From: Escherichia coli | GTDB taxonomy: Bacteria > Pseudomonadota > Gammaproteobacteria > Enterobacterales > Enterobacteriaceae | DNA length: 64,000 nucleotides | Reading direction: 5' to 3' (one strand) | Assembly: GCF_041248615.1 (NCBI RefSeq) | Contig: NZ_CP158426.1 | In this document: piece by piece, positions 11,157-12,364 of the stretch | How the letters are laid out: each line of letters opens with the position of its first letter | How positions within the stretch are numbered: position 1 is the first letter of the stretch | The notes under the pieces: generated by a model | Told to the model about the DNA's origin: nothing | Database searches by the model: none | What the model saw: the letters and a program-made list of their open reading frames with translations, nothing else | Program-made: the position numbers and the translations under genes

Positions 11157-11175
11157 TTGACAATACCCGGAGCGA

Positions 11176-11207
11176 TTCGCCCGCAGCCAATGCTGACTGC
11201 GGGCGAA
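11176..11207. terminator. Hairpin (ttcgcccgcag...ctgcgggcgaa) between convergent entD and hok; likely bidirectional terminator
   Basis: Inverted repeat read from sequence; a near-identical hairpin recurs at about 11676-11708 in the second hok copy. Confidence 0.4.
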
Positions 11208-11277
11208 AGTGTAAAGCAGGTGCCTTACTACTCTGACCTGACAACCGGATATGCGGGGATTACTCCCCGCACAACGG

Positions 11278-11430
11278 CTACTTCTTCGGTTCGTAAGCGA
11301 GAACAGCCTTAAACTCAATATTACGTTCCTTCACCGTAAACTCACACAGCGAGTCTCCGACCAGAAGCGTAAATCCCAGCACCGTTAAACACAGCACTAT
11401 GACTGCCACAAGGGCATATTTCGTCAGCAT
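11278..11430 (-). CDS. hokE: Hok-family small membrane toxin (type I toxin-antitoxin), copy 1
   Basis: 50 aa [50 protein letters not shown]; single TM helix plus conserved Hok C-terminus. Confidence 0.85.
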
Positions 11431-11575
11431 GTTTATATTGCCTCCATGCGAAGAAGGGACTACCATCCGAGTTGTTGAGGTTCGGAGTGGCAGCCCCAGG
11501 ATTGATAGAAATATCTCCTGGGGCTTCATCTTTCCAGACCTCAGAGTTAACCTGAAACCGGAAAGCTTCAGGCAC
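11342..11575 (-). CDS. mok-like overlapping reading frame of hok copy 1
   Basis: 77-aa ORF starting upstream of hok and ending inside it in a different frame, as in canonical hok/mok/sok loci. Confidence 0.4.
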
Positions 11576-11780
11576 CCGCTGTTATCTTACCCTTCCTTAG
11601 CAAAATAACTGTTTATTTATACAGCAAGTCCTGTTTCGGACTTCTGTTGGCAACACTCGTTATTGCTCGTAAAACGAAATCGCCCGCAGCCATCACTGAC
11701 CACGGGCGAAAGTGTAAAGCAGGTGCCTTACCACCCTGACCTGACAACCGGATATGCGGGGATTACTCCCCGCACAACGG

Positions 11781-11933
11781 CTACTTCTTCGGTTCGTAAG
11801 CGAGAACAGCCTTAAACTCAATATTACGTTCCTTCACCGTAAACTCACACAGCGAGTCTCCGACTAGAAGCGTAAATCCCAGTACCGTCAAACACAGCAC
11901 TATGACTGCCACAAGGGCATATTTCGTCAGCAT
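11781..11933 (-). CDS. hokE: Hok-family small membrane toxin, copy 2 (identical 50-aa protein; in this copy the upstream mok-like frame is fused in frame, track ORF 11781-12077)
   Basis: Same 50-aa Hok sequence; 98-aa extended ORF in track. Confidence 0.85.
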
Positions 11934-12364
11934 GTTTATATTGCCTCCATGCGAAGAAGGGACTACCATCCAAATTGTCTGGTTTGGAGTGGCAGCCCCA
12001 GGGTTGATAGAAATATCTCCTGGGGCTTCATCTTTCCAGACCTCAGAGTTAACCTGAAACCGGAAAGCTTCAGGCACCCGCCGTTATCTTACCCTTCTTC
12101 AGCAAAATAGCTGTTTATTTATACAGTGAGTCCTGTTTCGGACTTCTCACTCCTCATTTGATCAACTGAAGCTGAACCCGTTTTTTTCTGCATGCCTCAA
12201 TCGTCAAAATTCTTCGCCACCAGTCCGCACTGCCATAACTTGTCATATTGCAAAATGTAGCCAATTTGCTTCAGTCACCATCATCAAAAAAAGAAACATT
12301 CCAGAACTTCCGCATCTCGCCCAGTCGCTCCCACTTCTATACTGAATAGAAAACGCCAACATAA

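Follow-up and report, generated by a model that had tools for sequence, protein, structure and literature searches.

Two tandem hokE/sokE units of Escherichia coli differ in length by one nucleotide in the predicted Sok-target loop, a diversity hot spot of the locus

Two closely similar hok-type toxin units stand side by side in the entD-ybdK intergenic region of the Escherichia coli contig NZ_CP158426.1, and the single nucleotide by which their leaders differ in length changes the phase of an upstream reading frame relative to the toxin gene. The question raised by this locus is whether the phase change sets the two copies under different regulation, as the original prediction suggested, or whether the significance of the difference lies elsewhere. 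In the window (the whole stretch of DNA analysed, 64,000 nt), repeat search and pairwise alignment delimited a direct repeat composed of two gap-free blocks, 11177-11475/11680-11978 (299 nt, 96% identity) and 11479-11645/11981-12147 (167 nt, 95%), with a start-to-start spacing of 503 nt in the former and 502 nt in the latter, so that one base has been lost between the blocks. A period of 503 is beyond the limit of 500 set in Tandem Repeats Finder, which for this reason reported no repeat here. The entD-proximal unit 1 (11177-11645) and the ybdK-proximal unit 2 (11680-12147), both on the minus strand, are 95-96% identical in pairwise alignment; they were recognized as hokE/sokE units from the direct repeat, the alignment and the RefSeq annotation of hokE in an identical genome. 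Both encode the same protein of 50 aa on the minus strand, at 11278-11430 in copy 1 (list of open reading frames, Pfam, RefSeq) and at 11781-11933 in copy 2 (list of open reading frames, alignment, RefSeq), stop codons included, and the three substitutions that separate the two coding sequences are all synonymous. The protein is identical to RefSeq HokE (WP_000956465.1) and matches the Pfam family HOK_GEF (PF01848) over the whole model (1-42 of 42, E=2.5e-8); in an NCBIfam search, the HokA and Hok models matched as well, both under their curated cut-offs. The repeat and the identical 50-aa Hok frames thus bear out the proposal that a hok-type type I toxin locus has been duplicated in tandem. 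The length difference of 1 nt corresponds to ccgagttgttgaggttcgg in copy 1 (11467-11485) versus ccaaattgtctggtttgg in copy 2 (11970-11987). We consider it probable that two hokE/sokE type I toxin-antitoxin modules, each complete in itself, lie side by side at this locus.

Tandem hokE is a frequent copy-number variant in the entD-ybdK interval of Escherichia. Of the 5,426 complete E. coli genomes searched with a 71-nt query that covers the inter-copy junction (11630-11700) and does not seed on single-copy loci, at least 1,536 matched at ≥80% coverage, a count that represents a lower bound. E. coli CFSAN018748 is 100% identical to the region over 1401 nt, and its RefSeq record annotates two hokE genes there. 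An O157:H7 chromosome, in which hokE is likewise annotated twice, has the same two-copy layout as the window, with leaders of 146 and 147 nt confirmed in strain E32511, and further O157:H7 assemblies match over the full length at 94.9%. Three copies of hokE are present in strain 21F61, and tandem hok copies were also found in E. whittamii and two other Escherichia genomes, among them Escherichia sp. MOD1-EC7003, with more distant tandems in Enterobacter sp. JUb54 and Klebsiella spallanzanii. The original prediction had raised the question whether the duplication is common among hokE loci of other genomes, which the junction count answers in the affirmative, and had named an assembly artefact as what would refute it, which the same count excludes. 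As to the 1-nt difference, the identical CFSAN018748 record, the 146- and 147-nt leaders of O157:H7 and the full-length matches to other O157:H7 assemblies together indicate that it is no sequencing error; that either feature arose during sequencing or assembly is next to inconceivable. Tandem hokE is, moreover, already known: it is annotated publicly, and the phenomenon has been described under the name of hok islets. In a preprint whose analysis was conducted on Hok peptides, without Mok or Sok, 10% of Hok genes sit in ‘islets’ of 2-6 copies, and 13.5% of the Escherichia chromosomal hok genes lie within islets (bioRxiv 10.1101/2025.08.07.668861). Our literature search on hokE/sokE, mokE and tandem hokE returned no paper specifically on mokE or on the tandem hokE pair.

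Each unit is predicted to specify a full-length hok mRNA on the minus strand, at 11172-11577 for copy 1 (delimited by homology of the 5′ end, Rfam model RF01794 and folding) and at 11676-12079 for copy 2 (RF01794, folding and terminator scan). RF01794, which is named ‘sok’ yet models the strand of the hok leader, matches both leaders in full length on the hok strand (11422-11577, 81.9 bits; 11925-12079, 81.7 bits), above its gathering score of 59. The putative 5′ ends, GGGUGCC at 11577 and 12079, were assigned by homology, the motif being aligned with GGCGCUU, which we take to be the mapped 5′ end of the R1 hok mRNA. This homology, the start of the Rfam model and the pairing between the 5′ and 3′ ends jointly support the assignment; a search upstream of the hok mRNA yielded no convincing -35 element, so that the 5′ end rests on homology. 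For R1, the published numbering of G4, C5 and T6 of the hok mRNA (PMC9841398) is followed. At the opposite end, the 3′ terminus of mRNA 1 was placed after a terminator hairpin at 11176-11207, whereas for mRNA 2 the terminator scan identified a terminator at 11680-11709, followed by UUUCGUUUUA. Compared with shuffled sequences, the ~405-nt transcripts have folding z-scores of -7.25 (copy 1) and -7.44 (copy 2). In the predicted structures, nt 1-8 pair with the box AAGGCACC (11219-11226 in copy 1, 11722-11729 in copy 2), located just upstream of the terminator hairpin, in a tac-fbi interaction that is seen in the centroid structure for copy 1 and in the minimum free energy structure for copy 2.

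The plus strand of each unit would encode a Sok-type antisense RNA, as the original prediction held and in agreement with homology to the annotated sokE of K-12 MG1655 (b4835), which is antisense to hokE and covers the stretch from 44 to 103 nt ahead of the hokE AUG. From this homology, alignment and folding, SokE-1 (60 nt) is placed at 11474-11533 and SokE-2 (59 nt) at 11977-12035, the ends being assigned by homology only; the originally proposed intervals, 11540-11640 and 12040-12140, are ~70-100 nt off, upstream of the inferred mRNA start, and are corrected accordingly by the K-12 counterpart. The predicted fold consists of a single-stranded 5′ tail of 10-11 nt, GUUGAGGUUC in SokE-1 and GUCUGGUUUG in SokE-2, followed by a terminator hairpin. 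Putative promoters were read from the sequence on the plus strand at 11438-11466 and 11941-11969, each composed of TTGCCT, a 17-nt spacer and TACCAT, with 7 nt to the predicted +1, and a sequence identical to this promoter precedes the annotated sokE of K-12; a scan for the sigma-70 consensus found no promoter, the TTGCCT-17-TACCAT arrangement scoring 8/12, under the threshold. Outside the tail, SokE-1 and SokE-2 differ at one position only, and each is complementary to both mRNAs almost throughout. The tails themselves read GUUGAGGUUCGG in copy 1, GUCU-GGUUUGG in copy 2 and GUUCGGGUUUGG in K-12.

The reading frames of the two leaders are as originally described, both in their phases and in the site of the 1-nt difference: in the list of open reading frames, copy 1 has a GTG-initiated ORF of 77 aa (11342-11575) that overlaps hok out of frame, and copy 2 a GTG-initiated ORF of 98 aa (11781-12077) in frame with hok. 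What could not be upheld is their interpretation as a mok-like frame, canonical in copy 1 and specially fused in copy 2. Both GTG codons (11575 and 12077) correspond to nt 3 of the inferred mRNA, lack a Shine-Dalgarno (SD) sequence and are not homologous to the mok start of R1, and the phase of the frame is not conserved. In a survey of ~40 hokE units from 24 Escherichia genomes, the leader was 146, 147 or 148 nt long among natural alleles, a variation due to indels at two places, the loop discussed below and AGGA[C]GAU within the stem of the Sok terminator. A 146-nt leader sets the nt-3 GTG in phase with hok (98 aa) and leaves the nt-49 AUG at the head of a 22-codon ORF; with 147 nt, the GTG frame overlaps hok out of frame (77 aa) and the AUG is in frame (83 aa); with 148 nt, the GTG gives a short ORF of 38 aa and the AUG frame is out of phase (62 aa). 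Tandem units combine leaders in almost every way, namely, 148+147 (the commonest in the sample), 146+147 (the window and O157:H7), 146+146, 147+146, 147+147, 148+146 and 148+148. Since every phase relative to hok occurs in nature, neither the GTG nor the AUG frame is conserved, and in relatives from other genera both starts are missing or shifted. The AUG at nt 49 was considered as the true mok start and was rejected on account of this varying phase and lack of conservation in other genera. An NCBIfam search found no family for the 77-aa ‘mok’ ORF or for a 69-aa ORF on the plus strand.

The mok frame of R1 has a GAGG SD (nt 104-107) and an AUG (nt 116-118) that sits on the loop's 5′ side in the target hairpin, out of frame with hok (PMC9841398), whereas in hokE the position homologous to the R1 mok start holds no start codon, the GGGG equivalent of the SD (nt 81-84) has no start within reach, and of the upstream starts only an in-frame AUG at -36, located in the 3′ arm, is conserved. 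This AUG (11464-11466, minus strand, in copy 1), which would give a 62-aa N-terminally extended Hok, sits in the invariant 3′ arm GGAUGGUAG and is the only upstream start that is invariant in all Escherichia hokE units examined. A further candidate is the UUG at -40, from which an ORF of 42 codons extends out of frame into hok. The two codons form UUGGAUG in copy 2 (11967-11973, minus strand), whereas in copy 1 the UUG is replaced by CUC; the UUG is also present in most other alleles and is lacking from the copy-1-type alleles, which carry CUCGGAUGG. In relatives from other genera, the AUG provided by the motif GGAUG(U/G)UAG varies in position: at -32 it starts a 12-codon ORF that terminates with the UGA of AUGCUGA, and at -33 or -36 it is in frame. 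Other loci have an R1-like AUG at -51, preceded by a GAGG SD. In-frame leader ORFs do occur in the hok family, as evidenced by mokC/hokC (gef) of K-12, where mokC is an in-frame N-terminal extension that shares the stop codon of hokC (210 versus 153 nt); the mokC start is 57 nt upstream and inside the SokC-complementary region, whereas the hokE AUG is 36 nt upstream and just outside the Sok-complementary region. Judged from these sequences, leader-ORF architecture is fluid in the hok family, and Mok is not reliably predictable according to the authors of the islet preprint (bioRxiv 10.1101/2025.08.07.668861).

The 1-nt indel falls in the apical loop of the predicted Sok-target hairpin, where the other strand encodes approximately the first 11 nt of SokE. 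This hairpin, supported by folds, covariation and a diversity peak, occupies mRNA nt 81-122 in copy 1 (11456-11497, minus strand; variable apical part 11467-11485) and nt 81-121 in copy 2 (11959-11999, minus strand), where the apical part (11970-11987) is 1 nt shorter. Compensatory changes were observed both across genera (pair 24-38, GC/AU in 12 sequences; pair 11-50, AU/GC in 6) and between the two copies of the window (G-C to A-U). Diversity at the locus peaks in the stretch that forms the loop and encodes the Sok tail: among 33 distinct units, π is 0.199 at mRNA nt 85-104, compared to 0.079 at the fourfold-degenerate sites of hok, 0.016 at nt 1-58 and 0.002 at nt 112-147, and the clustering of variants was reached in none of 10,000 permutations (p<1e-4). 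At least seven tail haplotypes were distinguished, several of which are common to E. coli and E. albertii, E. whittamii or cryptic-clade genomes; the window copies represent types A and B, and K-12 type C. The tails differ in 16 of the 17 sampled two-copy genomes, and the three-copy strain 21F61 has three different ones, although this sample is small, phylogenetically non-independent and was partly picked through the junction query. A rule whereby the copies are always heterotypic was discarded, since Rb-50 carries F+F tails.

We propose that each unit would produce a minus-strand hok mRNA of ~400 nt whose full-length form would be inert owing to tac-fbi end pairing and would be further locked by sequestration of the GGGG box. 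Trimming of the 3′ end would allow the leader to refold, and ribosomes could then load on the conserved UUGGAUG/hok SD region or close to it. The plus-strand SokE of 59-60 nt would dock with its ~10-nt 5′ tail on the apex of the leader hairpin, blocking translation and, by analogy with plasmid R1, triggering cleavage by RNase III; the phase of any ORF starting 5′ of the loop would be irrelevant. The sequences show the anatomy of the units, their prevalence, the lack of conservation of the frames and the diversity hot spot; where the transcripts end, how they are processed and cleaved by RNase III, and how specific Sok is are inferred. The units have in common with the hok/sok (parB) system of R1 a Hok/Gef toxin, an mRNA of ~400 nt with pairing between its 5′ and 3′ ends, a leader hairpin targeted (here by prediction) by the 5′ tail of a cis-antisense RNA of ~60 nt, and an SD-equivalent sequestered by an upstream C-rich box (GGGG in hokE, GAGG in R1).

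Two other accounts would assign the locus a different meaning. If the upstream mok-like frame were functional, its phase would make the two copies differently regulated, and copy 2 might yield a 98-aa fusion. The ORFs do exist, translation of hok in R1 requires translation through the leader (PMC9841398), and the start-codon content of the copies does differ, copy 2 alone having the UUG at -40. Nevertheless, a GTG that is the third nucleotide of the message, without an SD and without homology to the mok start of R1, phases that combine almost freely among natural tandem pairs, a 77-aa product lacking an NCBIfam match, starts that are absent or displaced in other genera, and the fact that an in-frame mok is already known from mokC render this account very improbable. 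We regard the change of phase as an incidental by-product rather than a regulatory device, because no conserved frame crosses the loop, and hokE leaders thus serve as a warning against deriving regulatory meaning from ORF phase in hok leaders. A copy-specific difference in translation may exist all the same, for example, via the copy-2-specific UUG. Alternatively, both copies might be remnants of a plasmid-type hok/sok system that no longer function and are in decay. Such decay would accord with chromosomal hokA, hokB and hokC, which did not mediate post-segregational killing (summarised in bioRxiv 10.1101/2025.08.07.668861), and with the fate of hokE in K-12, which is disrupted by IS186. The K-12 hokE/sokE pair (b4415/b4835) resides at the same entD-ybdK locus, and its Sok region and leader elements are homologous to those of the window; its HokE allele differs by one residue (V8A) from the RefSeq HokE found in the window. 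K-12, however, has a single hokE, with IS186 ~20 bp downstream of hok, a tail of type C (GUUCGGGUUUG) and a 147-nt leader, whereas the window has two intact copies. The purely synonymous divergence of the two toxin genes does not suggest decay, nor does the diversity at hok codon positions 1+2 (π of 0.014, versus 0.073 at position 3), the invariance of mRNA nt 112-147 in the 33 distinct units, or the retention of every RNA element in both copies; moreover, cloned HokE is toxic (bioRxiv 10.1101/2025.08.07.668861). We consider the relic account very unlikely.

If the two modules are complete, the difference between them would bear on the specificity of their antitoxins. For the 11-nt tail, the computed duplex energies are -18.8 and -19.2 kcal/mol with the cognate mRNA and -5.8 and -9.6 kcal/mol with the non-cognate one; for full SokE, they amount to about -125 kcal/mol (cognate) and -107 to -113 kcal/mol (non-cognate). 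Because the 5′ tail of Sok in R1 reportedly nucleates binding, according to Gerdes and colleagues, and because the tails differ here, the two copies may be partly insulated from each other. The tandem Sib/Ibs paralogues provide a parallel, in that they repress cognate targets only, as set by a short recognition region (PMC2943612), whereas for the tandem SokE RNAs discrimination is a prediction from the computed energies of the tail duplex. It is plausible, although we would not call it probable, that each SokE would prefer its own hok mRNA over that of its neighbour. An evolutionary extension of this idea is tentative: the locus might be an old trans-species array of paralogues with a shared toxin, in which selection keeps tails and loops distinct so that the copies are mutually insulated. 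Conversely, the loop and tail differences could represent neutral drift in an unconstrained loop, with the SokE RNAs cross-repressing both mRNAs and the duplication altering dosage only. A cis-antisense RNA retains cognate pairing whatever the sequence, so that changes in the loop cost nothing; the remaining ~49 of the 60 Sok nucleotides are common to both RNAs and fit both mRNAs; and the homotypic tandem of Rb-50 exists. These points make drift a serious possibility that nonetheless falls short of being probable, given that diversity at the tail target is ~2.5 times that of fourfold-degenerate sites, with invariant sequence on the flanks, that tail haplotypes persist across species, that tails are distinct in the three-copy array and in most two-copy arrays, and that cognate-only repression has a precedent in Sib/Ibs.

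Were the insulation of the copies real, it would constitute an unreported Sib/Ibs-like discrimination within the hok/sok family, each antitoxin neutralising only the mRNA of its own toxin, and with no mok frame crossing the loop, drift in the length of the leader and the phase of its ORFs would be unconstrained. The combination of a hot spot at the tail and loop with tandem copies that differ there yields a testable insulation hypothesis for duplicated type I modules. Tandem local duplication of type I units, as seen here, is also known from ibs/sib and ldr/rdl (PMC2887945, PMC2943612), in addition to the hok islets.

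The hok mRNA starts, inferred by homology, are each preceded at a distance of 20-60 nt by a hairpin, GUCCGAAACAGGAC, and then UGUAUAAAUAAACAG (positions 11596-11640 and 12098-12142). This arrangement is conserved in all units. No hok promoter could be identified with confidence in either copy, and the GUCCGAAACAGGAC/UGUAUAAAUAAACAG region is a candidate site for the genuine −10 element (TATAAA) which, if it were used, would make the mRNA ~45 nt longer. Alternatively, the same region could represent a terminator acting on the plus strand.

On the plus strand opposite the hok start and leader, the RefSeq/PGAP annotation has a ‘hypothetical protein’ of 89 aa (e.g., WP_009008364.1), as in two of the hok loci from other genomes used for comparison (L058, positions 1203-1472; L060, positions 673-942). 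Both window versions of this frame (11399-11608 and 11902-12110) are frameshifted, leaving fragments of 69 aa and 51/53 aa, and the antisense ORF has no match in NCBIfam. It is probably a spurious call across the hok leader/Sok region. Within the hok genes themselves, both copies retain Tyr46, whose UAC codon (minus strand, 11293-11295 and 11796-11798) precedes a G and so stands in a UACG context, together with Cys29, and therefore the HokE toxins may need RNA editing for full activity.

The two units differ in their terminators. The hairpin of copy 2 (11680-11709), in which pairing is maintained through two G-U wobbles, is followed by the U-rich tract UUUCGUUUUA, whereas copy 1 (hairpin at 11176-11207) has AUCGCUCC there and lacks a U-tract, as is also the case in single-copy loci adjoining entD. 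Thus, transcription of copy 1 may be terminated less efficiently or read on towards entD.

Just 3′ of each hok stop codon, on the minus strand, is a G-run/C-run hairpin, GCGGGGAGUAAUCCCCGC, which resembles the known GC-rich target of IS186. In K-12, IS186 is found ~20 bp downstream of hokE, the insertion starting inside this hairpin, and in O104:H4, a hokE copy is flanked on both sides by IS421-family copies. Both sites of the window (11253-11270 and 11756-11773) are intact. The hokE array is also polymorphic on its left side, since in strains AR_451 and Rb-50 (loci L064 and L065) entD is replaced by two genes for SDR-family oxidoreductases. Furthermore, local duplication recurs outside Escherichia: hok units belonging to the same subfamily are duplicated, in tandem or nearby, in Klebsiella spallanzanii and Enterobacter sp. 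JUb54 (loci L024, L030, and L044).
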